Under the pieces are notes generated by a model. The model ran no database searches. It was given only the letters and a program-made list of their open reading frames with translations, and had not been told where the DNA came from. 64,000 nucleotides of DNA from an uncultured cyanobacterium (GTDB taxonomy: Bacteria; Cyanobacteriota; Cyanobacteriia; PCC-6307; Cyanobiaceae). The DNA is taken from positions 1 to 64,000 of the forward strand of contig CAVONQ010000009.1 in the NCBI GenBank assembly GCA_963697335.1. Direction: 5' to 3'. Made by a program: the position numbers and the translations under genes. Each line of letters begins with the position of its first letter. Within the stretch, counting starts at the first letter, position 1. Positions 2,637 through 61,010 of this stretch are shown piece after piece.

Positions 2637-3948
2637 TTGGCGAACCGAACTGCTGGAACGCATTGCCGAGATTCGTTCCAGCAACGTCGACAAGAAGACA
2701 AATCCCGCCGAAGAGCCGGTTCGTCTATGCAACTACATGGACGTGTACTCGCGCGAGTACATCACCGAAGATATTGATTTCATGGAGGCGACGGCCACGC
2801 CCTCTGAGATCCAGCGTTTCGGGATCGAGCGTGGCGACGTCTTGATCACGAAGGATTCGGAGACTCCAGACGACATCGGTATTCCCACATTCGTTGTCGA
2901 TGACATACCGAAGCTTGTCTGTGGTTACCACGTAGCCCTGATCAAGCCGAACCGAGCCGAGGTTGATCCTCTCTACCTCGCCAAGCAGCTCGGGCTTTCG
3001 GGCACCGCTCGCTACTACGGGCGGCTCGCGAACGGGTCCACGAGGTACGGCCTCTCCTACCAATCCATCGCACGAACCCCGATACGTCTGGCGCCGCTGC
3101 CGCAACAGCAGCGAATCGCCGAGATCCTTTCGACGGTCGACGAGGCCATCGAGCAGACGGAAGTGCTGATCGCCAAGACGCAGCAGATCAAGGCAGGCCT
3201 GATGCACGACCTCTTCACCCGAGGCGTTACCGCGGACGGCCAGCTCCGTCCACCACGCGAGGAGGCGCCGCAGCTCTACAAGGAGTCGCCGCTGGGATGG
3301 ATTCCGAAGGAGTGGGAGGTCGAAACCCTCGACCAGATTCGGGTCCCTCGCCAGACCATTACCTATGGCGTCCTGAAACCTGGCCCATTCGTTGAAAACG
3401 GTATTCCTCTCCTTCAGATCGAAGACGTTATTCATGGAGCACTCGATTTTGCGAAAGTGCACCGCATCTCAGCCAAACTGGATGCGGAGTACTCACGCAC
3501 CCGTGTGAACGGCGGAGAGATAGTGATCTCTCTCGTTGGCACAATAGGTCGAGTCGCCCATCTTCCCAGGCCAATAGAGCTGTCCAACCTGCATCGCAAT
3601 CTTGGTCTGATCGCGATTGCTGAAGATGAAATCCCTCGGTTCTTCTTCTACTATCTCCAGTCTTGGGCTTGCACAAGGCTGCTCGCACAAACGACCCTTG
3701 GCTCAACTCAAGCGCTTCTCAACCTGGGAAGCCTGCGCGTCCTCCCCACTCCTGTCCCAACACGCAGGGAAAGGCAGAGAATTGCGGATGCGCTCGATGC
3801 AGTCAGCGTGGCGCAGGAAGATGGTGCCAACGAGCTTCGCAAGCTGCAGCAGATCAGGGCGGCTCTGATGCAAGACCTCCTGTCCGGCCGCGTCCACGTC
3901 GCGGTTGAGCGTGCACCGGAGCCCAATGAGGTCGCAGCCAGTGTCTGA
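2629..3948 (+). CDS. hsdS: Type I RM specificity subunit HsdS
   Basis: Two TRDs with conserved spacers (PLPQQQRIAEILSTVDEAI...KAGLMHDLFTRG; SPLGWIPKEWEV; ERQRIADAL...ALMQDLLSGRV). ATG at 2629 overlaps the hsdM end. Confidence 0.93.
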   Translation: MRDWRTELLERIAEIRSSNVDKKTNPAEEPVRLCNYMDVYSREYITEDIDFMEATATPSEIQRFGIERGDVLITKDSETPDDIGIPTFVVDDIPKLVCGYHVALIKPNRAEVDPLYLAKQLGLSGTARYYGRLANGSTRYGLSYQSIARTPIRLAPLPQQQRIAEILSTVDEAIEQTEVLIAKTQQIKAGLMHDLFTRGVTADGQLRPPREEAPQLYKESPLGWIPKEWEVETLDQIRVPRQTITYGVLKPGPFVENGIPLLQIEDVIHGALDFAKVHRISAKLDAEYSRTRVNGGEIVISLVGTIGRVAHLPRPIELSNLHRNLGLIAIAEDEIPRFFFYYLQSWACTRLLAQTTLGSTQALLNLGSLRVLPTPVPTRRERQRIADALDAVSVAQEDGANELRKLQQIRAALMQDLLSGRVHVAVERAPEPNEVAASV

Positions 3949-6900
3949 ATACCTCCACGTCGAGAAGCCGTTCCTTCAGCAGCTCGCCGCCCTTGGCTGG
4001 AAAGTCATCGACCAGGGCCAGGGGTTCATCCCCTCGGACCCGTCGAAGAGCCTGCGCACAAGCTTCCGCGAGTGGTTTCTCCCCGAGGTCTTCCTCGCCG
4101 CTGTTCGCGCCATCAACCTGTCGCCTGACGGCAAGCCCTGGCTCACCGATCGACAGCTCGACGACTTGCGCGATCAGATCCTTCGACAGCCCAACCGCAC
4201 GTTGCTGGAGGCTAACGAGACAACACAGGGGCTCTTCCTCAAGGCCCAGGTGGACCGCAACGAAATCACTGGCGAGGCCGATCCAGTCGTCACGCTCATC
4301 GACTTTGCGCACCCCGAGCGCAACCAGTTCCACGCCATCAACCAGTTTCGCGTCGACACACCGGGCTGTGTGAAGAGCTGCATCATCCCGGACATCGTCC
4401 TCTTCGTGAACGGGATTCCGCTCGTGGTGGTCGAAGCGAAGATCGGCGATCCCAATACCGCCAACCCCCTGCACGCGGCCTACGAGCAGCTTCTCCGCTA
4501 CCGCAACGGACGGCCCGAGACCATCAAGTCGGGCCTGCGCGAGGGCGAGCCGCGGCTCTTCTACACCAACCTGCTGCTGGTCCGAACCTGCGGCGAGAAG
4601 GCCGAATTCGGCTCGATCACCTCGGGCCACGAGCACTTCTACGCCTGGAAGGACATCTGGCCTGAGAGCAACCAGGTCTACACGCCGCCGCTGGGCGTGG
4701 AGCGTGAACAGGAGAAGCTCATCCAGGGGTTGCTCTCGCCTGCCACCCTGCTCGACGTGCTGCGTACGTGCACGGTGTTCATGGACACCGATTCGGGCCG
4801 GCGTATCAAGGTCGTCTGCCGCTACCAGCAGTACCGCGCGGCCCGGAAGATCGTCGATCGTTTGCGCGCAGGCAAGACACCGGAATCGCGCTCGGGCGTC
4901 GTCTGGCACACCCAGGGCTCGGGCAAGTCGTTGACCATGGTCTTCGTGGCCCGCATGCTGCGCGCCGCATCTGACCTCAAAGACTTCAAGATCCTGCTCG
5001 TCAACGACCGGGTCGACCTAGAGGAGCAACTCTCCGGCACCGCCAAGCTCATCGGCGGCAAGGTCAACGTCATCGAGAGCACGGCCCAGCTCCGCGAGCA
5101 CCTGAGCACCGGCGCCTCCGACATCAACATGGTGATGGTGCACAAGTTCACCGAGCGCACCGAGGCGCTACCGAAAGCCGTCGCCCAGGCTCTCACCTAC
5201 GGCGCCAAGCCGCTGCCCGAACCGGGGGGGCCCAAGGCTGCCGCCTCCGGTGGTGTGCCTTACCGGGTCATTCCTTCGAGCAAGACCTTCGGGGTGGTGA
5301 ACCCGTCTGAGCGCATCATCCTGATGATCGACGAGGCCCACCGGACCCAGGGCTCTGACCTCGGGGACAACCTCTTCGAGGCGTTCCCCAACGCCACCCG
5401 CATCGCTTTTACCGGAACTCCGCTCATCGCCGAGCAGCACGGCACCAAGCGCACGGTGAAGCGCTTTGGTGAATACATCGACACCTACAAGCTGATGGAC
5501 GCCGTCCACGACGGCGCCACGCTGCAGATCCTCTACGAGGGCCGTACCGCCGACACGGCCCTCAAGGACAAGCACGGCTTCGACACCAAGTTCGAGGACC
5601 TCTTCAAGGAGCGCACCGAGGAAGAGATCCTCGCCATCAAGAAGAAGTATGGGGCTACCGGCGATCTCCTCGAGGCCGAGAAGCGCATTGAGGCCATCGC
5701 GAAGGACCTGGTCGACCACTACATCGACAACATCCTGCCTGACGGCTTCAAGGCCCAGGTTGTCTGCCACTCGAAGCTGGCCGCCATCCGCTACCAGAAG
5801 GCGATTCGGCAGGCACTCGCGGAGCGCCTCGAGCGAGAGAAGCTGAAGCCAGAGCCCGACACCGACCTTATCCGGCGCATCGAGTTCTTGAGGGTGGGCG
5901 TCGTGGTCTCGTCGGACCCGACGAACGAGACCGCTGCTATCACCGAGGCCCGCAAGGAAGCGAAGCGCTGGAACGTGGTGGAGAACTTTTGCCGCCCCTT
6001 CGATTTCGAAGACCACGACAAGGCCCTCACCGGCGTCGCCTTCCTGGTCGTGTGCGACATGCTGCTCACCGGCTTCGATGCCCCCATCGAGCAGGTGATG
6101 TACATCGATAAGAAGCTGCGCGAGCACAACCTGCTGCAGGCCATCGCACGCGTGAACCGGGTGGCGACCAACAAGCATCGGGGGTTTATCGTTGACTACA
6201 TCGGCCTAGCCAATCACCTGACAAGCGCACTCTCCATCTACTCGGAAGAAGACGCCCAGGACATCCACGATGGGCTGAAGAGCGTCCTCAGCGAGATGCC
6301 AATTCTCGAAGAGCGCTACCAGCGACTCCTGCAGCACTTCATTGCCGCCGGCGTGGGCAACATCTGGGCCTTCATCCAGGGCCAGCTTGGATCTCCTGAT
6401 GCCGACGTTGCCGTGATCCACGCGGCCGTCGGTGCGATGAACGACATCAAGCGTCGGGCAGACTTCGAGGTCTACCTGAAGAAGTTTCTTCAGAGCCTCA
6501 ATCTCATTCTGCCGAATCCCGCCGGCCACCCTTATCGTGGGGCCGCGCGCCGTTTCGGGTACCTGCTGCGGATGGTCAAGGAGCGCTACAAGGACGAGTC
6601 CCTCGACATAACCGCCGCCGGCGAGAAGGTGAAAGCGCTCATCAATGAGCACCTCGTCGACCTAGGTATCAACCCGAAGATCCCGCCCGTCGAATTGCTG
6701 TCTGACGAGTTCATCTCGCATGTGCACAAGCACTCCCAAGGCAACGACGAGGCTAAGGCGAGCGAGATGGAGCACGCCATTCGCAAGCACTGCACGGTCC
6801 ACTTCGAAGAAGACCCAGCCTTCTATACCAAACTCAGTGAGAAGCTGGAGAAGCTCATCGAGCAGCATCGCGACAACTGGAAGTCGCTGTCTGATGACCT

Positions 6901-27085: not shown

Positions 27086-28180
27086 ATGGCTTCCCCCGGC
27101 TCCGCCCTGACCCTGGTGATCAACGCCGGCAGCTCCAGCCTCAAGGCCTCGCTGCTGGCGCCCGATGGTTCCCGCCCCTGGCAGGAGCAACACGGCTGGG
27201 ACCCGGCGGAGCCCGGCGGCATGGGCGGCCTGCTGGAGCGGTGGCTGCTGCCGGCGGTGCTGCCCTGGCTGCCGCAGCTGGAGCGGATCGCCCACCGGGT
27301 GGTCCATGGCGGCGAGCGGTTCTGCCGGCCCACCCGGCTCACGCCATCGGTGATCACCGGGCTGGAGGCCATCGAATCCCTGGCGCCCCTGCACAACGGC
27401 CCGGCCCTGCAGGCGATCCGCTGGTGGGCCGCCTGGCTGGAGCGCGAGCACCAGACCCTGGCCCAGTGGGCCTGCTTTGACACGGGCTTTCACGCCTCCC
27501 TGCCGGAGGCGGCGCGCACCTATGCGATCCCCGCCGCCTGGCGGCGGCAGGGGCTGCGGCGCTACGGCTTCCATGGCCTCAACCACCAGCACGTGGCCGA
27601 GGTGGTGCAGGCCCGCTGCCCCGATGCCCGCCGCCTGATCAGTGCTCACCTCGGCGCTGGCTGCTCCCTGTGCGCCGTGCAGCTGGAGCCGGGGGCGGCA
27701 CCGCGCAGCGTGGCCACCACCATGGGCTACACCCCCCTGGAGGGCCTGGTGATGGCCAGCCGCAGCGGCAGCGTGGACCCCGGCCTGCTGCTGCACCAGA
27801 TGCGCCAGGGGCTCAGCGCCGACCAGATCGACCAGGCCCTCAACCGCCAGAGCGGGCTGCTGGGGCTCTCCGAACTCAGTGGCGACATGCGGCAGCTGCG
27901 CCAGGCCGCGGCTGCCGGCCATGGCGGTGCCCTCCTGGCCCTGGCCGTGTTCCGTCAGCGGCTGCTGGAGGGGATCGGCGCCATGGCCGCCAACCTGGGC
28001 GGCGTGGAGGTGATCGCCCTCACCGGTGGCATCGGCGAACACGACGACGCCCTGCGCCTGGAGTTGGAGCAGGCCCTTGTCTGGCTGCCGCCCTTCACCC
28101 TGCTGCGGGTGCCGGCGGATGAGGAGGGGCTGATCGCCCGCGCCTGCCGCAGGGCGGTCAGCGCTTCACGCCAGGGATGA
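27086..28180 (+). CDS. ackA: Acetate/propionate kinase
   Basis: LVINAGSSSLK, HRVVHGG, LAPLHN, FDTGFH, RYGFHG, HLGAGCS, TMGYTPLEGL, TGGIGE. Confidence 0.93.
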   Translation: MASPGSALTLVINAGSSSLKASLLAPDGSRPWQEQHGWDPAEPGGMGGLLERWLLPAVLPWLPQLERIAHRVVHGGERFCRPTRLTPSVITGLEAIESLAPLHNGPALQAIRWWAAWLEREHQTLAQWACFDTGFHASLPEAARTYAIPAAWRRQGLRRYGFHGLNHQHVAEVVQARCPDARRLISAHLGAGCSLCAVQLEPGAAPRSVATTMGYTPLEGLVMASRSGSVDPGLLLHQMRQGLSADQIDQALNRQSGLLGLSELSGDMRQLRQAAAAGHGGALLALAVFRQRLLEGIGAMAANLGGVEVIALTGGIGEHDDALRLELEQALVWLPPFTLLRVPADEEGLIARACRRAVSASRQG

Positions 28181-29393
28181 AGCGCCGCTCGTGCTGGGCA
28201 CCGGTGAGCATGCGGTTCCAGTAGAGGGAGGGAAGGACCTTGCGCTTGATGAACCACATGCTCCAGCGCTCCTTGGTGGGATCCAGGGGGAAGGAGGGCA
28301 CCGGCTGCTGCTCATAGTTGAACTCGGCCATGATCACCTTGCCGTAGCCGGTGATCAGCGGGCAGCAGCTGTAGCCGTCGTAGGCGGCCTCCAGGGGCTG
28401 GCCGTCGAGGAAGGCCAGCAGGTTCGCCACCAGCACCGGGGCCTGGCCGCGCACGGCGGCGGCGGTCTTGGAGTTGGGAATGCCGCTCACATCCCCCAGG
28501 GAGAACACGTTCGCGAAGCGCAGGTGCTGCAGGCTGAACTTGTCCACCTCCACGAAACCACTGGCAGCAGCCAGGGGGCTGCTGGCCACCACCTCCGGAG
28601 CCGCCATCGGCGGCGTCACGTGCAGCAGGCCGTAGGGGATCACGGCCTCATGGCTCTTGTCACCGTCGTTCACCTGGAACACGGCTTCGCGACTCTCCGG
28701 GCGCACGGCGGTGAGCACGTGGTTGTAGCGGGCGTCGATGCCGTGGCGCTTCACCACCTCCCGTAGCGGCGCGGCGTAGGTGGGCACGCCGAAGATCCCA
28801 GGCGTGGCGGTGGCATAGATCACCTGGGCCTGCAGACGCTTCTTCTTGAACACGTCATCGGCCAGATAGGCGATCTTCTGGGGAGCGCCCGGGCACTTGA
28901 TCGGCATCGGCGCACAGGTGAACACCGCATTGCCCTTGGTGCCTTCACTGCCTCCTTTGAAGGCCTGAATCGCCTCCCAGGTGTAGGCGGTGTACTCCTT
29001 TGAATAGTTGCTGCACACGCCGCCCTGGCCGAGGGCCTCCGTCAGCCCCTCGATCTTCTCCCAGCAGAGCCGCAGGCCGGCGGCCACGATCAGCACGTCG
29101 TAGTGGATCGCCTCGCCCTCGGTGCTGGTCACCACCGCTCGCTCGGGATCAAAAGCGGCGGCTCCGGCGCGGATCCAGTGCACGCCTGAGGGAATCACAT
29201 CGCCTTCGGCGCGGCGGGTTTCCTCCAGGCTGAACACGCCGCCCCCCACCAGGGTCCAGCCCGGCTGGTAGTAGTGCTCGCTGGAGGGCTCAAGGATGGC
29301 CACATCGAGGCCGGGGCGGGCCCGCTTCAGCTGGGCCGCGGCGGTGATTCCGGCGGCACCGCCGCCGACGATCAGAATCTGGTGATGGGCCAT
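28158..29393 (-). CDS. sqr: Sulfide:quinone oxidoreductase, type II-like (copy 1)
   Basis: IVGGGAAG, YQPGWTLVGGG, IKCPGAPQK, KTAAA, YDGYSCCPL, AEFNY. Confidence 0.87.
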   Translation of the reverse strand: MAHHQILIVGGGAAGITAAAQLKRARPGLDVAILEPSSEHYYQPGWTLVGGGVFSLEETRRAEGDVIPSGVHWIRAGAAAFDPERAVVTSTEGEAIHYDVLIVAAGLRLCWEKIEGLTEALGQGGVCSNYSKEYTAYTWEAIQAFKGGSEGTKGNAVFTCAPMPIKCPGAPQKIAYLADDVFKKKRLQAQVIYATATPGIFGVPTYAAPLREVVKRHGIDARYNHVLTAVRPESREAVFQVNDGDKSHEAVIPYGLLHVTPPMAAPEVVASSPLAAASGFVEVDKFSLQHLRFANVFSLGDVSGIPNSKTAAAVRGQAPVLVANLLAFLDGQPLEAAYDGYSCCPLITGYGKVIMAEFNYEQQPVPSFPLDPTKERWSMWFIKRKVLPSLYWNRMLTGAQHERRFIPGVKR

Positions 29394-29534
29394 GGGGCAG
29401 CGCAGGGCGCTGAGCCGCCCCGTGTAGGTCTGTTCCCATTGAGTCATGCCGAGGGTGCCCCAACGGAAGCGCTCCCCTGACTGATGGGAAACTTCGACGC
29501 CCCTGCCAGCATCCCCTGACCGACTCAGACCAGC

Positions 29535-43125: not shown

Positions 43126-44723
43126 TCAGGCGGAGAAGTGGGCCTTGGCGGCGTAGAGGGCCTCACCGTCAATCAGGGCCAGCCCTTGCTCGCGGGCATA
43201 GGCCTCGGTGTTGCGCCGCACCTTGCCGCGCACGAAGAAGGGGATCTTGGCCAGTTCGGCCTCGCCGGTCGGGTCCCAGCTGGGGGCGCTGGGGCCGACC
43301 GGAGTTCGCTCTTCGCTGCCGGGGTCAGGGGCGGCAGCGGGGGCTGGAGCCGTTTCGGGGGGGGCCTGGCCGCCCAGATGGCTGCGGTGGCCCTCCACGA
43401 ATTCGAAGTCGTGGCGGAACATGCCGATCAGGTGCTCCTCCAGGCCCATCATCAGCGGGTGCACCCAGCTGTCGAAGAGCTCGTTGGCGCCCTCCCAGCC
43501 CATCTGGGGGGCATGGCGGGCCGGCACGTCCTGCACGTGCAGGGGTGAGCTGATCACGGCACAGGGGATGCCGAGGCGCTTGGCGCTGTGGCGCTCCATC
43601 TGGGTGCCGAGCACCAGCTCCGGCATGGCCTCGGCCATGGCCCGCTCCACCTCCAGGTAGTCATCGCTGATCAGGGCCTCGAGGCCCAGCTCCCGGGCGG
43701 CGGCCCGCACATCCCGGGCCAGCTCGCGGCTGTAGCTGCCCAGGCCCACCACCTCAAATCCCAGCTCCCGGCTGGCCACCCGGGCAGCGGCAATCGCATG
43801 GGTGGCATCGCCGAAGATGAACACCCGCTTGCCGGTGAGGTAGGTGGAGTCGACCGAGCGGGAGTACCAGGGCAGTTGGGAGGAGCTCTCCGGGGCCATG
43901 GGCTGCTCCTCGAGGCCGAGCACCTGGCGCAGCTCGCTCAGGAAGTCGCGGGTGGCGCCGATGCCGATCGGCACCGTGCGCACCACCGGCTGGCCGAAGC
44001 GCCGCTCCAGCCAGCTGCACACCGGCCCGGCCACCTCCGGATAGAGGCAGACATTGGCATCGGCCGCCGGGATGCGCACCAGATCGGCGGGGTGGGCTCC
44101 CAGGGGCGCCACCACCGCCACATCGATGCCTTCGGCGCCCAGCAGGCGGCTGAGCTCGCGTACATCGTCGCGGCAGCGGAAGCCCAGCAGGCTGGGGCCG
44201 AGCAGGTTGACCCGGGGCCGTCGGCCCTCGGCTCGCCAGCGCTGGGCCGAGGGTGGCGGCGTGCCCGGGGCCGGCATCTGGGCCTTGAGCAGGTGCCGCA
44301 CCAGTTGGTAGAAGGTCTCCGCCGCTCCCCAGTTCTCCTTCTTGGAGTAGGCCGGCAGCTCCAGGCTCACCACCGGCCTGCCGCCCAGGTCCATGCCGGC
44401 CGCCAGGGAGCCCGGCTGGTCCTGGATCAGCTCGGCGGTGCAGCTCTCACCCACCAGCAGGGCCTCGGGCTGGAAGCGGTCCACCGCCTCCTGGATCGAG
44501 CGCTTCACCAGCTCGGCGGTGTCACCACCCAGGTCGCGGGCCTGGAAGGTGGTGTAGGTGACGGGCGGGCGCCGCTGACGCCGCTCGATCATCGTGAACA
44601 GCAGGTCGGCATAGGTGTCGCCCTGGGGCGCATGCAGCACCAGGTGCACCCCCTCCATGGAGGCGGCGATGCGCAGGGCCCCCACGTGGGGAGGGCCTTC
44701 GTAGGTCCAGAGGGTGAGTTCCA

Positions 44724-44724
<1 letters not shown>
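43126..44724 (-). CDS. chlB: DPOR subunit B
   Basis: [37 protein letters not shown]-terminal PCP_red ([15 protein letters not shown]). Confidence 0.96.
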
Positions 44725-46118
<1,394 letters not shown>

Positions 46119-50548: not shown

Positions 50549-51478
50549 TCAGGGCAGCGCGCTCCACAGCACGGTGGCGGCGCCAAGCACCATCACGGCG
50601 GCGGCGAGCAGTCGGCGACGCCCCTCGGCCTCGCCCAGGGCCACCACGCCGATGCCGCTGCCGAAGAGGGTGCTGAGCCGTTTGATGGCGATCACATGCA
50701 CCACGGCGGTGTTCCGGATCGCCTCCATCTGCCACACCGAGCCCACAGCCCCGGCCAGGGCCGCCACCAGCAGGAACGGCAGCACCCCTCCCCAGCCGAT
50801 CCGAGCCTTGCCCCTGGCCTTGGCACGGGCTGGGCCGCTGGCCAGGCCTCCCGGCAGCGACAGCCCCAGCAGGCTGCCGCCGATCACCAGCTGCAGGGAA
50901 ACCACCCACAGCACGCTGCCGCCTGCCTGCACCCCCAGCTTGTCCATGGTGGCGGCCATACCCCAGATCACGGCCACCAGCAGCATCCAGCGGCACCCGG
51001 GGCTGGCCCAGAGCTGGCCCAGCCCCGCCATGCCCCCCGACGCCAGCCCTCCCCTGCGGCTGCGGCCCAGCAGCAGGGCCCCCAGCACGAGAAGTCCCAC
51101 GCCGGCCGCGGCTAGCGGGCTGGGCCGCTCCCCCAGCACCCACCAGCCCGCCAGCAGCAGCACCAGGGGGGAGAGGTTGATCAGCGGCAGCACCAGGCTG
51201 AGGTCCTCCAGAGCGATGGCGCGGCCATAGCCCCAGAAGGCCAGGGCATTGAGGCTGCCGCCCACGGCCAGGGCCGCCAGGAACGCCCAGCCATCCAGGG
51301 GCTGGGGTCCGTTCAGCAGCAGGGGCAGGCCCAGCAGCAGCGCGGCCAGGGCACTGCTCAGACCGATCACCCGCAGGGTGCTCCAGCCGGACTGACGCAG
51401 CACCCTGCGCAGGGCCAGATCGCGCAGGGTTTCCAGTACCGCTGTGCCGAGGGCCAGCAGCGCCCAGGGGAGCACCAC
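50549..51478 (-). CDS. EamA/DMT family transporter
   Basis: About 10 TM; DLSLVLPLINLSP, LGERPS, IAIKRLS, LGE. Confidence 0.85.
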   Translation of the reverse strand: MVLPWALLALGTAVLETLRDLALRRVLRQSGWSTLRVIGLSSALAALLLGLPLLLNGPQPLDGWAFLAALAVGGSLNALAFWGYGRAIALEDLSLVLPLINLSPLVLLLAGWWVLGERPSPLAAAGVGLLVLGALLLGRSRRGGLASGGMAGLGQLWASPGCRWMLLVAVIWGMAATMDKLGVQAGGSVLWVVSLQLVIGGSLLGLSLPGGLASGPARAKARGKARIGWGGVLPFLLVAALAGAVGSVWQMEAIRNTAVVHVIAIKRLSTLFGSGIGVVALGEAEGRRRLLAAAVMVLGAATVLWSALP

Positions 51479-51599
51479 GGGCTAGGCGGCCCCCAGGCCA
51501 GCCTGGCCATGGCATGGGGTCCTCATTCCGCGAAGAATCGCCACCTTCCCAAGCCTCTCCCTGTTCTGCTCTCCACACTGAAGGAAAGCCTCCCGGTCG

Positions 51600-52037
51600 A
51601 TGCGGGCTTCGATCAACCATGCCCTGCGGCTGATCACCCTCTGGATCGCCTGGCTGCTGGCGATGCTCTTCCATGTGGACCTGGGCCTGATGCCCCTGTT
51701 CCACGGCCAGTCGCCGGAGATCCACAGCCAAGTGCAGGAGGGGGCATTGCCCTTGCTGTTCGGGGCGATGCTCGGCTACTTCCTGCTGCCGCTGATCGCC
51801 ATCGTGCTGATCGCCTACGCCGCCACCACGGTCGGTCCGGCCACACGCTGGCGACCCTGGCGGCGGATCCACTTCTGGTTCAGCGTGGTCTATTCGGTCA
51901 CCAACGTTCCCCATCTCCTGGCCGACATTCTGGTGCCCGATGCCCGCCTCGATCAGATCGTGCTGATGGTGGCCCTCACGGTGTTCGGGCTGTTGATCAA
52001 CCTGGAGGCCTGGCACTGGTGGCGGCAGAACCCCTGA
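51600..52037 (+). CDS. Hypothetical 4-TM membrane protein
   Basis: Four hydrophobic segments; AMLFHVDLGLMPLFHG; several His at helix ends. Confidence 0.7.
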   Translation: MRASINHALRLITLWIAWLLAMLFHVDLGLMPLFHGQSPEIHSQVQEGALPLLFGAMLGYFLLPLIAIVLIAYAATTVGPATRWRPWRRIHFWFSVVYSVTNVPHLLADILVPDARLDQIVLMVALTVFGLLINLEAWHWWRQNP

Positions 52038-52082
52038 CGGGGTGGGGCGGCAGGGGGGCCGGGAACAGGCGCTTGTTGTCTT

Positions 52083-52102
52083 TTATGCGCTTACAGCGAT
52101 AA
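52083..52102. promoter_or_regulatory. Candidate repressor operator upstream of psbA (D1')
   Basis: TTATGCGCTTACAGCGATAA imperfect palindrome, 13/20 identical to 59988-60007. Confidence 0.45.
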
Positions 52103-52192
52103 CAGGCTATCGTTTCCAGCAGGAGCTCGCCGGCGCGGCCCTTCGCGGCGCTGCCGGCGCTGGGCTCCTCGTCAACGCATCGCCTGGATCCC

Positions 52193-53272
52193 ATGACGAC
52201 AACCTCCCTGTCTCCCTCCCGCATCCCCCTCTGGGAAGCGTTCAAGAACTGGGTCACCAGCACCGACAACCGCCTCTACGTGGGTTGGTTCGGCGTGCTG
52301 ATGATCCCCACCCTGCTGGTGGCCACCTGCTGCTTTGTGATCGCCTTCATCGGTTCTCCCCCCGTCGACATCGACGGCGTCCGGGAGCCCGTCTCAGGCG
52401 GCCTGCTCTACGGCAACAACATCATCACGGCGGCGGTGGTGCCGAGTTCCAACGCCATCGGTCTGCACCTCTATCCGATCTGGGCCGCCAAAAGCCTCGA
52501 TGAGTGGCTCTACAACGGTGGGCCCTATCAACTGATCATCTTCCACTTCCTGATCGGCATCTTCTGCTGGATGGGCCGTGAGTGGGAACTCAGCTATCGC
52601 CTCGGCATGCGCCCCTGGATCGCCGTGGCCTATTCCGCTCCCGTGGCCGCTGCCACCGCCGTGCTGCTGGTGTACTCCATCGGCCAGGGTTCCTTCTCCG
52701 ACGGCATGCCCCTGGGCATCTCCGGCACCTTCAACTTCATGCTGGTGCTCCAGGCCGAGCACAACGTGCTCATGCACCCCTTCCACATGCTCGGCGTGGC
52801 CGGTGTGTTCGGCGGTGCCCTGTTCTCGGCCATGCACGGCTCCCTCGTCACCAGCTCCCTGGTGCGCGAAACCACGGAAACCGAGTCCCAGAACCGGGGT
52901 TACAAGTTTGGCCAGGAGGAGGAGACCTACAACATCGTGGCGGCCCACGGTTACTTCGGCCGACTGATCTTTCAGTACGCCAGCTTCAACAACAGCCGCA
53001 GCCTGCACTTCTTCCTGGCCGCCTGGCCCGTGGTGGGCATCTGGTTTGCGGCCCTGGCAGTGGCCAGCTTCTCCTTCAACCTCAACGGCCTCAACTTCAA
53101 CCACTCCGTGCTCGATTCCCAGGGCCGGGTGGTGGACACCTGGGCTGACGTGCTCAACCGCGCCGGCCTTGGCATCGAGGCGATGCACGAGCGCAACGTG
53201 CACAACTTCCCCCTCGATCTGGCGGCGGTTGATCGGGCCTCAGTGGCGCTCACGGCGCCAGCTCTCGGCTGA
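52193..53272 (+). CDS. psbA: Photosystem II D1, microaerobic D1' type
   Basis: Full-length D1 with D61, Y161, D170, E189, H190, H332, E333, H337, D342 and A344 intact. Carries the D1' markers G80A, F158L, T286A, plus P162S, F186L, A336V. Confidence 0.95.
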
Positions 53273-53328
53273 TCCTGTCGCGCCCAGGTGGCGCCTTCCC
53301 GTTCATCGTTCCCCTGCCTGGCTCTGCC

Positions 53329-53973
53329 ATGGATCTTCTCTTCCCCACCCTGCGGCGCATGCTGCCTCTGATGGCTCTGGCGGCCGCCTTCGCCCTGCTG
53401 GCCAGCCTGCTGCTGAGCCTCTGCCCGGCGCCCGCCCTCGCCCTGGAGGCGCCCGCCAACCCGGCCGGTCTCCCCCGGGCCGTCGAGGCGATGGAGCAAC
53501 TGGATGAGCTGCGCACGCAGCTGGCCTCCAGCCTCGAGGGCAGCAGCGAGGAGCCCAGCATGGACACGATGCGGGAGGTCTGCCGGCCCGTGGGCCTGCG
53601 GGCCATGGCCATCGGCAAGGAGAACGGCTGGACCGTGCGCCAGGTGGCCAGCAAGTACCGCAACCCCGACCATGCCCCCGCCGGCAGCCAGGAAACCGAG
53701 GTGATCGATCTGCTGGCGAGGCACCCCGAGATCACCGGCCTGTGGGAGCCGGCCGCGGCCGGCCAGGCCGCCGGTGTGAACTATTACCGCCGCATTGATG
53801 TGCAGCCCAGCTGCCTGGCCTGTCATGGCACCAAGGACAGCCGCCCCGGATTTGTGAAAAACAACTACCCCGCCGACAGGGCCTTCAACTTCAAGCCCGG
53901 CGATCTGCGCGGCATGTATGCCGTGTTCATTCCTGAGGTGCAGGAGGTGCTCAGGGCCTCTGAAGGAGGTTGA
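53329..53973 (+). CDS. Tll0287-like (DUF3365) exported c-type heme protein
   Basis: Signal peptide (..ALA), EVCRPVG (candidate distal Cys), KYRNP.HAP, CLACHG, Y..DRA.NF..GDLRG. Confidence 0.88.
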   Translation: MDLLFPTLRRMLPLMALAAAFALLASLLLSLCPAPALALEAPANPAGLPRAVEAMEQLDELRTQLASSLEGSSEEPSMDTMREVCRPVGLRAMAIGKENGWTVRQVASKYRNPDHAPAGSQETEVIDLLARHPEITGLWEPAAAGQAAGVNYYRRIDVQPSCLACHGTKDSRPGFVKNNYPADRAFNFKPGDLRGMYAVFIPEVQEVLRASEGG

Positions 53974-53975
53974 GC

Positions 53976-55247
53976 ATGCATTGCCAGGTGCTGATCGCCG
54001 GGGGCGGAACCGGGGGGATCACCGTGGCCAGCTGGTTGCGACGGCTGGCGCCGGAGCTGGAGGTCACGGTGGTGGAGCCCTCCTCCGTTCACGACTACCA
54101 GTCGGGCTGGGTGCTGGTGGCCGGCGGTTTCATCTCTGCGGCTGAAACCGAGCGCAGTGAGGCCTCGGTGATGCCCGAGGGGGTGCGCTGGATCTCCAGC
54201 AAGGTGGTGGCCTTCGATCCCGATCACCATGCCATCGAGCTGACCGATGGCCAGCGCCTCACCTACGGGGTGCTGGTGGTGGCGCTGGGCATCGACCTGC
54301 TCTGGAGCGCCGTGGACGGCTTGCCGGCAGCGCTGGGTGGCCATGGGGTCTGCAGCATCTACAGCCGCCGTTTTGCGGTGTACACCCGCGACTGCCTGCG
54401 CCGCTTCCAGGGCGGTACGGCCCTGTTCACCGAGCCCGCCACGGCGATCAAATGCGGTGGGGCACCCCAGAAGATCATGCACATTGCCGACCAGCAGTTC
54501 AAGCGGCGCAGTGGCGTGGGCGTGAATTCCAGGCTGATCTTCTGCACCGCCAAGAGCAGCCTGTTCCCCGTGCCGGCCTTCAACACCGCCATGGAGGCGA
54601 TCGCGGCAGCCCATGGCAGCGAGGTGCGCTACCGCCACAACCTGGTGGCCGTCAACGGCCCGGAGCGCCGGGCCGTGTTCCGGGTCCAGGAGCAGGAGGG
54701 CGGCGAGGGCCACGAGCTGGAGCTCGGGTTCGATCTTCTGCATGTGGTGCCGCCGATGGCCGCGCCCCGGGTGGTGGCGGATAGCCCCCTCGCCATCAAT
54801 GCCACGGAGGGCTGGGTGGAGGTGGATCCCCACAGCGGCCAGCATCCGCGCTACCCCGATGTGTTCGCCGTCGGTGATGTGGGCTCGTATCCCACCGCCA
54901 AGACAGGGGCGGGGGTGCGCATGCAAGCCCCGGTGGTGGCCGCCAATGTGCAGGCGGTGCTGCAGGGGGGCAGCGTGCAGCCGGGCTACGACGGCTACAG
55001 CGCCTGCCCGCTCATCACCACAGACCACAGCGTGATGATGGTGGAGTTCGACTACACCAACAAGCCCGTGAGCAGCTTCCTGGTGAATCCGGTGAAGGAG
55101 CGCTGGTTCGCCTGGTTGCTGGAGCGTTGGGGTTTTCCCTGGATCTACTGGAACCGCATGCTCAAGGCGCAGCCCCACGAGGGCGCCTACCTGAAGCCGT
55201 TCACGGGGCTGGCCCGGCGGCTGGGCCTGATGCGCTGGCAGAGCTGA
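53976..55247 (+). CDS. sqr: Sulfide:quinone oxidoreductase, type II-like (copy 2)
   Basis: IAGGGTGG, YQSGWVLVAGG, IKCGGAPQK, KTGAG, YDGYSACPL, VEFDY. Starts 3 nt after the DUF3365 stop. Confidence 0.87.
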   Translation: MHCQVLIAGGGTGGITVASWLRRLAPELEVTVVEPSSVHDYQSGWVLVAGGFISAAETERSEASVMPEGVRWISSKVVAFDPDHHAIELTDGQRLTYGVLVVALGIDLLWSAVDGLPAALGGHGVCSIYSRRFAVYTRDCLRRFQGGTALFTEPATAIKCGGAPQKIMHIADQQFKRRSGVGVNSRLIFCTAKSSLFPVPAFNTAMEAIAAAHGSEVRYRHNLVAVNGPERRAVFRVQEQEGGEGHELELGFDLLHVVPPMAAPRVVADSPLAINATEGWVEVDPHSGQHPRYPDVFAVGDVGSYPTAKTGAGVRMQAPVVAANVQAVLQGGSVQPGYDGYSACPLITTDHSVMMVEFDYTNKPVSSFLVNPVKERWFAWLLERWGFPWIYWNRMLKAQPHEGAYLKPFTGLARRLGLMRWQS

Positions 55248-55277
55248 ATCCAGCCAATCAATCGATCGGCTCGGGAA

Positions 55278-56051
55278 TCAGAGGATCTGCTCGAGGAAAC
55301 GGCGGCTGCGTTCGTGGCTCGGGTTCGAGAAGAACCGCTGCGGCGGCGCCTCCTCCACCACCTCGCCCCCGTCCATCAGCACCACGCGGTGGGCCACCTG
55401 CTGGGCAAAGCGCACCTCGTGGGTCACCACCACCATGGTCATGCCCTCGGCGGCCAGGCCCTGCATCACCTCCAGCACCTCGCGCACCATCTCGGGGTCA
55501 AGGGCGCTGGTGGGCTCATCGAAGAGCATCAGCTGGGGGTCCATGCACAGCGAGCGGGCGATGGCCACCCGCTGCTGCTGGCCGCCGGAGAGCTGGCCCG
55601 GGTATTTGTCCGCCTGCTCGGCGATCCCCACCCGCTCCAGCAGCTGGAGGGCCCGTCGCTTCGCCTCGGTGCGGCTGCGGCGGCGCACCAGCACCGGCGC
55701 CAGGGTGAGGTTCTCCAGCACCGTGAGGTGGGGGAAGAGGTTGAACTGCTGAAACACCATGCCCACCTCGCGGCGGATGGCGTCGATGTCGCGCAGGTCG
55801 GCGGAGAGGGGCCGGCCATCGATGTGAATGCTGCCCTGCTGAAAGTCCTCCAGGGCGTTGAAGGTGCGGATGAAGGTGCTCTTGCCGGAGCCCGAGGGCC
55901 CCATGATCACCACCACCTCGCCGCGCTTCACCGTGAGGCTGGCACCCCTGAGGGCCTGAAAGCCGTTGGGGTACCACTTGTGCACGGCCTCGGCCCGCAG
56001 GATCGGGGCCTGGCTTTGGTTCTGGGGGGTGGTGGGGGCGCTGGAGTCCAT
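55278..56051 (-). CDS. Polar amino-acid ABC transporter ATP-binding protein
   Basis: GPSGSGKST, MVFQQFNLFPHL, LSGGQQQRVAIAR, FDEPTSALDPE. Confidence 0.94.
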   Translation of the reverse strand: MDSSAPTTPQNQSQAPILRAEAVHKWYPNGFQALRGASLTVKRGEVVVIMGPSGSGKSTFIRTFNALEDFQQGSIHIDGRPLSADLRDIDAIRREVGMVFQQFNLFPHLTVLENLTLAPVLVRRRSRTEAKRRALQLLERVGIAEQADKYPGQLSGGQQQRVAIARSLCMDPQLMLFDEPTSALDPEMVREVLEVMQGLAAEGMTMVVVTHEVRFAQQVAHRVVLMDGGEVVEEAPPQRFFSNPSHERSRRFLEQIL

Positions 56052-59580: not shown

Positions 59581-59919
59581 TCAGACGGCCTTGAGCTGCT
59601 GGAGCTGGGCCTCAAGCCGTTGCTTGAGGCGTTTCTGCACCAGGTCGCAGAGGTCGTCCACCAGATCGCTGTCGGCGTGCCAGATCGTGCGCACGCCATC
59701 GCGTTCACAGCGCACCAGGGTGGCGCGCTGCAATTGTCCAAGCTGCCGACTGATGTGGGACTGGGAGAAGCCGGTGGCCTCGATCAGGGAGGCCACATCC
59801 ATCGGCCCCTGCTTGAGCTGACAGAGGAGCTGCAGCCGCGCCGGTTCGCTCAGGATCCGGAAGAACTGGCTGAACTCTTCAAGCAACTGGGGGGAGGGCG
59901 GCTGGCCCGGACAAGACAT
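59581..59919 (-). CDS. ArsR-family regulator of the BigR/SqrR (persulfide-sensing) type
   Basis: LSEPARLQLLCQL (Cys in alpha2) and LVDDLCDL (Cys in alpha5); no alpha3 CxC. Divergent from the rhodanese remnant and tauE. Confidence 0.75.
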   Translation of the reverse strand: MSCPGQPPSPQLLEEFSQFFRILSEPARLQLLCQLKQGPMDVASLIEATGFSQSHISRQLGQLQRATLVRCERDGVRTIWHADSDLVDDLCDLVQKRLKQRLEAQLQQLKAV

Positions 59920-60027: not shown

Positions 60028-60186
60028 GTGGCTACCACTAGTGCCGATTCGCTCGCCTCGGGGGCCGTCACCGTGATCGACGTGCGCGAGTCCGCGGGGC
60101 TTGTGCACCACAACGGTCAACACAGTGGCCCCGCCCTGGAACAGCTGCTGCTGGCGCTGATGCCCTGGAACCGGGTGAGCCTGTGA
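60028..60186 (+). pseudogene. Internally deleted YgaP-like rhodanese/DUF2892 gene
   Basis: 52 aa joining the rhodanese start (LASGAVTVIDVRE) to a DUF2892-type end (LLALMPWNRV). Catalytic Cys loop and TM helices absent. Confidence 0.7.
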
Positions 60187-61010
60187 CGGTTGCCGCCGTT
60201 GAGATGGTCACGGTTTCCACGCTGCTGCTGCTGGCCGGCGGAGCCCTGATCGGTCTGCTGCTGGCCGTGCTGGGGGCAGGCGGCTCAATCCTGCTGCTGC
60301 CCCTGCTGGTGAGCGGCGCGGCTCTGCCCACCCGCGAGGCGGTGCCGCTGTCGCTGCTGGTGGTGGCCCTGCTCGCCATGGCCAACGTGGGGCCCTACCT
60401 GCGCCGGGGCCAGCTGGCTCCCCGCCCAGCCCTGCTGCTGGGCGTGCCAGCCCTGGCGGGCAGCTGGATCGGCGGCAGCCTGGTGAAGGCGGGCCTGATT
60501 CCAGAAGTGCTGCAGCTGGGGCTGTTCAGCGTTGCCGCCGTGGCCGCCTCCTGGCTGCTGCTGCGCCGGGGTGCCCAGGCTGCCGGCCGCCCCCCCGGCG
60601 CCAGACCGGTTGCTGTGAGGGCCCTGGCCGCCCAGGGTCTGGGGGTGGGCCTGCTCACCGGCATTGCCGGGGTGGGCGGTGGCTTTGCGATCGTGCCGGC
60701 TCTGGTGCTGCTGGCGGGGCTGCCGATGGCGGTGGCCAGTGGCACCAGCTTGGTGCTGATCGCCGCCAATGCCGCGGTGGCCCTGGTGGCTCTGGGCCAC
60801 TGGCCCCAGGCGACGCTGCCGCTGTTGGTGCCGTTGCTGCTGGGGGGAGCTGCCGGAGGGCTGCTGGGACAGCGGCTGGCGCCCCACCTGCCGGAGCGGC
60901 GGCTGCGCCAGGGCTTTGCGCTGCTGTTGATCGGCTCGGCCCTGCTCACCGGGGGCGAGGCCTGGCAGCGGCAGCAGGTGCCGCCGACAGCGGCTGAGCG
61001 GGCTCAGTAG
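60183..61010 (+). CDS. Sulfite exporter TauE/SafE family
   Basis: LGAGGSILLLPLL and AGVGGGFAIVPALV repeats, A.GTSL..I. Confidence 0.9.
   Translation: MTVAAVEMVTVSTLLLLAGGALIGLLLAVLGAGGSILLLPLLVSGAALPTREAVPLSLLVVALLAMANVGPYLRRGQLAPRPALLLGVPALAGSWIGGSLVKAGLIPEVLQLGLFSVAAVAASWLLLRRGAQAAGRPPGARPVAVRALAAQGLGVGLLTGIAGVGGGFAIVPALVLLAGLPMAVASGTSLVLIAANAAVALVALGHWPQATLPLLVPLLLGGAAGGLLGQRLAPHLPERRLRQGFALLLIGSALLTGGEAWQRQQVPPTAAERAQ

Follow-up and report, generated by a model that had tools for sequence, protein, structure and literature searches.

The window analysed here comprises 64,000 nucleotides (nt) from an uncultured cyanobacterium of the Cyanobiaceae (GCA_963697335.1, contig CAVONQ010000009.1; contig C9 of a 2.58 Mb genome in 18 contigs, G+C about 66-70% around the locus), and at 52193-55247 on the + strand it carries three intact, co-oriented open reading frames (ORFs): a psbA gene of the D1' type (psbA'), a Tll0287/DUF3365 c-type haem gene and a gene for a type II sulfide:quinone oxidoreductase (SQR), sqr. 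We read the three genes as a compact form of a cyanobacterial low-oxygen/sulfide acclimation island and give this reading a probability of roughly 0.6. It follows from the partners that recur around such genes (D1', SQRs, DUF3122, a Rieske protein and a persulfide dioxygenase), beside which the window would represent the minimal form of the island. Comparative genomics supports a putative functional module joining low-oxygen D1', Tll0287 and sulfide oxidation. The first-pass annotation of this DNA had proposed that the organism couples an alternative D1 to sulfide oxidation; the gene identities and the D1'-Tll0287-SQR synteny speak for that coupling, which as a whole is partly supported and stays a prediction. 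The features of the string are as follows.

52108-52113 (+), candidate -10-like hexamer TATCGT, 80 nt 5' of the psbA' ATG; conserved TAnnGT within AACGCTAnCGTT
52193-53272 (+), psbA, D1' (group 3, low-oxygen type), 359 amino acids (aa); from TIGR01151, Photo_RC and marker residues
53273-53328 (+), spacer of 56 nt with a weak hairpin GCGCC-CAGGT-GGCGC (53280-53294) and no U run; from sequence and folding
53329-53973 (+), Tll0287-like (DUF3365 / sCache_haem) c-type haem protein, 214 aa; from PF11845 and PDB 5b82
53965-53978 (+), putative translational-coupling junction, GGAGG, TGA, 2 nt and the sqr ATG; from sequence, similarly tight in the related loci L107, L108, L109 and L056
53976-55247 (+), type II sulfide:quinone oxidoreductase, 423 aa; from human SQOR structures, cysteines and FAD motif

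Identity of the three proteins

The first gene encodes a full-length D1 protein (TIGR01151, 716.8 bits against a cut-off of 596.05 over positions 1-358; Photo_RC, 4e-89) and is the most divergent of the four psbA copies in the genome, two of which are identical and accompanied by a third. Gly80Ala, Phe158Leu and Thr286Ala are described as the only residues common to the low-oxygen-induced D1' forms in a 2009 review (PMC2776144). Earlier assignment of the gene to this clade on the same three markers proves right, for A80 (52430-52432), L158 (52664-52666) and A286 (53048-53050) can be read directly from its codons and the genome's other three copies have G/F/T at these places. Glu130 (E130) is also present. 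The Mn4CaO5 cluster of photosystem II (PSII) is liganded by D170, E189, H332, E333, D342 and A344, and all of these, the ligands that were checked, are retained; because none is missing, we assign the protein as a water-oxidising D1' and not as a 'rogue' (group 1/2) D1, copies of which, in loci L011 and L104, lack several Mn-cluster ligands. The isoform is thus intact and predicted to be competent for water oxidation. Some D1' genes adjoining Tll0287 in other genomes look damaged or altered: the one in L036 (6656-7697) is split into two frames, that in L087 (7177-7833) is matched over residues 125-343 only, and that in L077 (1478-2554) has Tyr replacing His332.

The second gene is a member of the Tll0287 family, as had been annotated: it matches PF11845 at 4e-26 (92.6 bits against a gathering score of 24.1) and the structure of Tll0287 (PDB 5b82) at 2.9e-56, with the VCxPVG cysteine and the SCLACHG segment aligned, and both the CXXCH motif and the conserved cysteine are present. 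The CXXCH motif is CLACH at residues 162-166 (C162-L-A-C165-H166, 53812-53826), and Cys85 (53581-53583), in VCRPVG, aligns with VCAPVG of 5b82; C85, C162, C165 and H166 are invariant in 14 homologues. We take the cysteine of VCxPVG, Cys85 here, to be the axial haem ligand in a His/Cys ligation. About residues 1-39 are basic and then hydrophobic and end in ALA-LE, which by eye resembles a signal peptide, and there is no further domain; from this N-terminus the protein is predicted to be exported. The family, of which this gene would be a stand-alone member, has been redescribed as a c-haem Cache domain for which CXXCH is defining (10.64898/2026.02.01.703092). In Thermosynechococcus, Tll0287 is reported to accumulate when psbA2 is the only D1 gene, in dependence on the psbA2 promoter, its His/Cys haem has a midpoint potential of about -255 mV, and its proposed roles are those of a redox sensor or, in a proposal of 2017, a cytochrome subunit of an H2S-oxidising system (all in 10.1101/2023.02.13.528314). 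The two proteins are alike in family, CXXCH motif and conserved cysteine and in being tied to a D1' isoform, but the tie consists of co-accumulation and promoter dependence in Thermosynechococcus, whereas in the window it is genomic, the gene lying directly 3' of psbA'. Among three homologues compared, the best scorer against 5b82 (231 bits) was that of L015, whose gene lies 3' of a type I sqr and not of psbA.

The third protein is closest to human SQOR (6oi5/6mo6, 3.8e-87 over residues 2-409), with far weaker matches to the flavoproteins of flavocytochrome c sulfide dehydrogenase (FCSD; 3e-22) and to type I SQRs (Aquifex, 8.7e-13; Acidithiobacillus, about 1e-5). Its KCGGAPQK and SACPL motifs align with human KCAGAPQK and TSCPL, whose cysteines, C160 and C344 here, are presumably catalytic. 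Cys160 (54453-54455), Cys344 (55005-55007) and the flavin adenine dinucleotide (FAD) motif GGGTGG (residues 9-14, 54000-54017) are invariant in 17 relatives, and the protein begins directly with the FAD-binding fold, with no N-terminal signal peptide. The annotated SQR identity is upheld by the likeness to human SQOR and by the presence of both redox cysteines, and sulfide:quinone activity is predicted. The linked SQR shares with the other type II enzymes (human SQOR and those of Synechocystis and Synechococcus) its cysteines and FAD motif; PMC8002359 also names, in the legend to a figure, type II SQRs from two picocyanobacteria, WH 5701 and RS9917. Two other assignments were rejected. As a type III selenoprotein SQR (NCBIfam NF049943) the protein scores 189.8 bits against a cut-off of 525; the matches with a TGA inside in the SQRs of genomes G017 and G018, taken as a possible selenoprotein sign, are stop codons at position 403; and an FCSD flavoprotein is contradicted by the missing signal sequence and by FCSD matches far weaker than those to SQOR.

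The genome holds a second, unlinked type II SQR paralogue at 28158-29447 (-), which is 47-48% identical to the linked one and falls in a separate clade of a quick tree; members of its clade occur in nearly all same-genus genomes. In G000 (the window's own genome), G012, G019, G002 and G009 a distance of about 24-28 kb separates this second SQR from the psbA' string.

Conservation in the Cyanobium group

Sixty related genomes, 31 of them of the same genus, were compared with G000. The Tll0287 gene was matched in 24 of the 31 same-genus genomes and in none of five genomes from other genera of the family, and SQR in 30 of the 31. The tight three-gene string is found in G000, G012, G019, G009 and G002, and looser strings occur in at least nine further same-genus genomes: psbA'-Tll0287 is followed 0.9-5.8 kb downstream by an SQR of the same clade in G011, G008, G007, G016 and G026, and accompanied by SQRs of other clades in G031, G005, G015 and G013. 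In G014, Tll0287 and sqr stand together and psbA is not assembled.

A wider view was obtained by scanning a collection of species genomes with a Tll0287 alignment and taking the best 80 of 245 confirmed places, 65 of which belong to the Cyanobium group (records named Cyanobium, Vulcanococcus, freshwater or brackish 'Synechococcus' and Aphanothece). A co-oriented psbA lies within 2.5 kb upstream of Tll0287 in 43 of the 53 Cyanobium-group loci with at least 2 kb of upstream flank, a co-oriented SQR within 8 kb downstream in 21 of the 48 with at least 5 kb of downstream flank, and both in 14 of the 42 with both flanks. The psbA genes concerned are of one kind, A80/L158/A286 being present in 56 of 56 full-length psbA rows (at least 85% identity) adjoining Tll0287, a count in which some genomes were fetched twice. 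Drawn from species representatives, the sample speaks against a D1'-Tll0287 adjacency restricted to a handful of close relatives. A cultured strain, Aphanothece stagnina RSMan2012 (L056), also has the compact string. The linked SQRs are more diverse: in a quick maximum-likelihood tree (IQ-TREE, midpoint-rooted) they form three well-supported clades of 12, 10 and 5 rows (SH-aLRT 99-100, an approximate likelihood ratio test), distinct from an unlinked housekeeping clade of 16 rows that is found in almost every genome. Since the arrangement is conserved across genomes, the linkage exceeds what chance would give, and the synteny that a survey of D1'-type psbA neighbourhoods was expected to reveal, if the first-pass annotation was right, is indeed present in relatives.

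Fuller picocyanobacterial strings carry additional genes, as in L060, where a divergent DUF3122 gene is followed by psbA', an unassigned ORF, Tll0287, a PetC-like Rieske gene, a Kir-type channel on the other strand, SQR, a persulfide dioxygenase-rhodanese and a rhodanese-YgaP gene. In L049, a second Tll0287 copy in the genome behind L031, SQR-like pieces of 29-39% identity overlap one another downstream of that copy, at positions 2950-4195 of the locus; the place (G016:C8) shows internal TGA stops and is possibly a decayed SQR gene.

Occurrence in other cyanobacteria and recurring partners

Twenty-four distinct Tll0287 loci from other cyanobacteria were collected from two sources (9 + 15) with no duplicates. 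Neither a type II SQR nor psbA lies directly upstream of Tll0287 in any of these 24. A distant SQR homologue, co-oriented, does so in six (L011, L013, L015, L090, L095 and L098); that of L015, the one compared with solved structures, is of type I (3sz0, 4e-79; 3hyv, 1.1e-77), and all six have similar NCBIfam profile matches. A D1'-type psbA (A/L/A, with M173) was found within about 5 kb of Tll0287 in three of the 24 (L011, L103 and L104), in two of them alongside a rogue D1. Two non-orthologous SQR types thus connect Tll0287 with sulfide oxidation, and in several lineages it is joined to D1' as well.

The further partners are shared between the 24 loci and the 70 picocyanobacterial loci to different extents: a PetC-like Rieske gene is near Tll0287 in 7/24 and 24/70, a persulfide dioxygenase-rhodanese in 4/24 and 27/70, and DUF302 in 7/24 and 0/70. 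DUF3122, near Tll0287 in 17/24 and 45/70, is its most constant neighbour and is often divergent from psbA'. The full set stands side by side in L011 (G056:C1:2076501-2093028). There, in a cyanobacterium with 6.1 Mb of DNA, a large island of low-oxygen and sulfide genes runs from an OprB porin through a rogue D1, a PetC-like Rieske protein, DUF302, a type I SQR, Tll0287 and DUF3122 to a rubrerythrin-like protein, two radical-SAM proteins (one of them B12-binding) and D1'.

Junctions and transcription

Co-orientation and gaps of 56 and 2 nt had been reported for the three genes, and coordinates and gaps alike are correct. The 56 nt separate the psbA stop from the ATG of the Tll0287-like gene, whose own TGA (53971-53973) stands 2 nt before the sqr ATG at 53976, with GGAGG at 53965-53969, 7 nt 5' of that ATG; the longest sqr ORF begins instead at TTG 53970 and overlaps the Tll0287-like gene by 4 nt. 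With its stop-to-start arrangement and the Shine-Dalgarno sequence before it, the Tll0287/sqr junction has the look of translational coupling.

The first spacer allows a less definite reading. Its hairpin has a 5-bp GC stem and folds no better than shuffles (z -0.13), whereas the four closest relatives (L107, L108, L109 and L056) carry a GC hairpin of 7-9 bp with a U-rich tail at the same position, a difference that may govern how strongly psbA' is expressed relative to the genes behind it. A consensus scan of 51400-55500 returned no terminator-like site in either spacer; it returned five in all, against 1.4 expected from shuffles, each of them within coding sequence. The earlier remark that no terminator is evident therefore holds for the window in a weak sense: the spacers have no scan match, but the 5-bp hairpin is there and the relatives have stronger, U-tailed ones.

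A strict sigma-70 consensus scan of the same interval gave no promoter-like site. When 18 psbA' upstream regions are aligned, the sole conserved element is TAnnGT within AACGCTAnCGTT, to which the candidate -10-like hexamer listed above belongs. A 'TTGAGCAnAAA..CAT' motif 5' of psbA' was rejected as a regulator site, since it represents the beginning of the coding sequence of DUF3122, which is divergent here. Directly 5' of psbA' in the window lies an ORF for a hydrophobic protein of 145 aa (51600-52037, +), with coding-like codon bias and no Pfam or NCBIfam match; L107, the closest relative, has a different sequence in its place.

Part of the window is contained in 20 sequencing runs, three of which are RNA libraries holding small shares of it. 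Near-exact contigs from these, at a depth of about 2, cover 53405-53555, 53800-53950 and 53949-54099, and the high psbA depth in the same libraries comes mostly from contigs 88-95% alike, that is, from other organisms. Taken with the layout, co-transcription of psbA', Tll0287 and sqr is plausible, with presumed read-through at the weak hairpin in the window.

Interpretation and alternatives

If the string is a compact acclimation island, falling oxygen together with sulfide would bring about transcription from the psbA' promoter that passes the weak hairpin and continues into Tll0287 and sqr. SQR would oxidise H2S at the membrane to sulfane sulfur and reduce plastoquinone, so that less sulfide would be left to poison the Mn cluster and electrons would be fed to the chain. 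The sulfane sulfur would then be processed further by a persulfide dioxygenase-rhodanese whose gene is on another contig. D1' would meanwhile replace the standard D1 and yield a PSII suited to low oxygen and a reduced quinone pool, and Tll0287, in the lumen or periplasm, with a haem whose reported potential of about -255 mV is near that of the S0/H2S couple, may report or buffer the sulfide/redox state on the donor side of D1'-PSII.

Several observations weigh against this reading. The SQR link is facultative, given that 27 of 48 Cyanobium-group loci have no SQR nearby and that the same-genus genomes G010, G017 and G030 have D1'-Tll0287 without a linked SQR; conversely, ten flanked loci have no psbA within 2.5 kb upstream of Tll0287, and some of these keep SQR (L028, L038 and L039). 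DUF3122 and PetC-like genes are absent from the window's own string, and no regulator of the psbA'-Tll0287-sqr string was identified. With a signal peptide predicted on Tll0287 alone, the two proteins may occupy opposite sides of the membrane. At the RNA level, none of the mapped contigs crosses the psbA'/Tll0287 spacer (53272-53329), and the contig 53949-54099 crosses the Tll0287/sqr junction with 25 nt on the left side only, and the RNA-library matches may reflect DNA carry-over; in relatives, the terminator-like hairpin after psbA' suggests that psbA' may be mostly monocistronic there.

An alternative is a division of the string into two units, psbA' alone, ending at the spacer hairpin, and a bicistronic Tll0287-sqr sulfide unit in which Tll0287 would serve SQR as sensor or helper, D1' being a mere neighbour in a shared low-oxygen regulon. 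The translationally coupled second junction, the U-tailed hairpins 3' of psbA' in the four closest relatives and the loci in which Tll0287 stands beside a type I SQR without psbA (5 of 24 outside the picocyanobacteria) all favour such a division. In the window itself, however, the hairpin is short, without a U run and no more stable than shuffles, a spacer of 56 nt is short for a promoter and the scan gave none in it, and in the Cyanobium group D1'-Tll0287 adjacency (43/53) is more constant than that of Tll0287 and SQR (21/48). We regard two units as a possible arrangement, appreciably less probable than the island and compatible with it. A facultative anoxygenic switch, in which SQR would send sulfide electrons by way of plastoquinone to photosystem I to drive CO2 fixation, with D1'-PSII idle or no more than protective, seems to us rather unlikely. 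The SQR of Synechococcus PCC 7002 does support growth on H2S that is insensitive to 3-(3,4-dichlorophenyl)-1,1-dimethylurea (DCMU; PMC12466478), and a link of this sort was raised for group 2/3 psbA by Grim & Dick (PMC5061849). Yet the D1' in the window keeps every Mn-cluster ligand, unlike the rogue D1 of L011 and L104, and the unlinked SQR paralogue and the persulfide dioxygenase in the genome fit detoxification.

The stop-to-start junction, the adjacency of Tll0287 to two SQR types and the role of 'cytochrome subunit of an H2S-oxidising system' among those proposed for Tll0287 (10.1101/2023.02.13.528314) might also be taken to mean that Tll0287 and SQR form a flavocytochrome-like sulfide dehydrogenase with the haem protein as electron-accepting subunit. 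We think this very improbable: the SQR has no signal peptide and Tll0287 has a signal-peptide-like N-terminus, the SQOR match (3.8e-87) lies far above that to FCSD (3e-22), and about -255 mV is a low potential for a haem that would have to accept electrons from FAD. That the adjacency has no functional meaning, the genes having been packed together by genome streamlining, is the least credible account and is disfavoured; many D1'-Tll0287 loci are without SQR and the spacing ranges from 2 nt to 5.8 kb, but the same partners come together again in distant cyanobacteria, where the SQRs are non-orthologous and the gene order varies. A bolder thought, to which we attach little probability, is that D1'-PSII and Tll0287 make up a sulfide-handling donor side, with the lumenal His/Cys haem taking electrons from sulfide or polysulfide near the Mn cluster and passing them on. 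A potential of about -255 mV lies close to that of the S0/H2S couple. If this were true, oxidised PSII or lumenal carriers would be the recipient, D1'-PSII could tolerate or use sulfide, and, with the linked SQR working on the quinone side, the trio would be a remnant of a mixed water/sulfide mode of PSII.

To return to the acclimation island, the synteny ties D1' and Tll0287 to each other genetically, and both to sulfide oxidation, in small-genome picocyanobacteria, and the compact three-gene string offers a target for knock-outs and expression tests.

Relation to published work

The locus adds one more case to a kind already in print, a named Cyanobium included, and the idea that connects a modified PSII with sulfide exposure was published as early as 2016. 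Grim & Dick (2016) reported group 2 and 3 psbA genes close to sqr in 15 genomes (PMC5061849), and Table S2 of that paper lists, for Cyanobium sp. PCC 7001, a type II sqr (identifier ending in 167), a group 3 psbA (ending in 169) marked as near sqr, and a second type II sqr (ending in 188) that is 21 identifiers away. PCC 7001 as tabulated there and the window have the same layout, with one gene between psbA and sqr and a second SQR, here at 28158-29447. The words 'heme' and 'DUF3365' do not occur in the main text of PMC5061849, where the gene between psbA and sqr accordingly goes unnamed. In that text the psbA-sqr link is treated as untested; what differs here is that the middle gene is recognised as Tll0287-like and that, across the Cyanobium group, D1' and Tll0287 make up the constant core. 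No description of the three-gene unit, or of D1' adjoining Tll0287, in picocyanobacteria was found in the literature searched, preprint supplements and the 2017 structure paper on Tll0287 lying outside the search, and 'sqr' and 'psbA' are absent from PMC13588713 and PMC8955281. The novelty that the first-pass annotation had cautiously suggested for the three-gene unit therefore does not extend to the proximity of psbA and sqr, which PMC5061849 tabulates for PCC 7001 among others; it narrows to what was not found in print, namely the naming of the middle gene as Tll0287, the strength of its pairing with D1' and a linkage independent of SQR type.

Another known parallel is the low-oxygen regulon of Synechocystis, said to have been described by Summerfield and co-workers in 2008, in which psbA1 reportedly has petC2 nearby. 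The likeness lies in the clustering of a D1' gene with an alternative Rieske gene, as is also seen where a PetC-like gene accompanies Tll0287; the window differs in that its string has no PetC-like gene and its genome a single PetC match. As to physiology, the 2009 review considers the advantage of D1' not obvious and still to be identified (PMC2776144), SQR-dependent, DCMU-insensitive growth on H2S is on record for Synechococcus PCC 7002 (PMC12466478), and Cyanobium is reported to be abundant in the anoxic, sulfidic layers of a stratified lake (10.64898/2026.01.18.698864).

Other genes in this genome

Some of the partners missing from the string are encoded elsewhere. On contig C6 of the same genome, a rhodanese and a weak DUF3122 match (G000:C6:16876-17205) accompany a persulfide dioxygenase-rhodanese that shares 85% identity with the one in L060; only one PetC gene was matched in the genome. 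Within the window, a regulator of the ArsR/SmtB family that contains three cysteines (59581-59919, -) lies 4.3 kb downstream of sqr and is divergent from a gene for a TauE/SafE sulfite exporter (60183-61010, +); the regulator matches NmtR, SmtB, BigR and SqrR at family level only and is a candidate sulfide/persulfide regulator. On the other side, 6 kb upstream of the string, lie chlB- and chlN-like genes (43126-46064, -) for the light-independent, oxygen-sensitive protochlorophyllide reductase.

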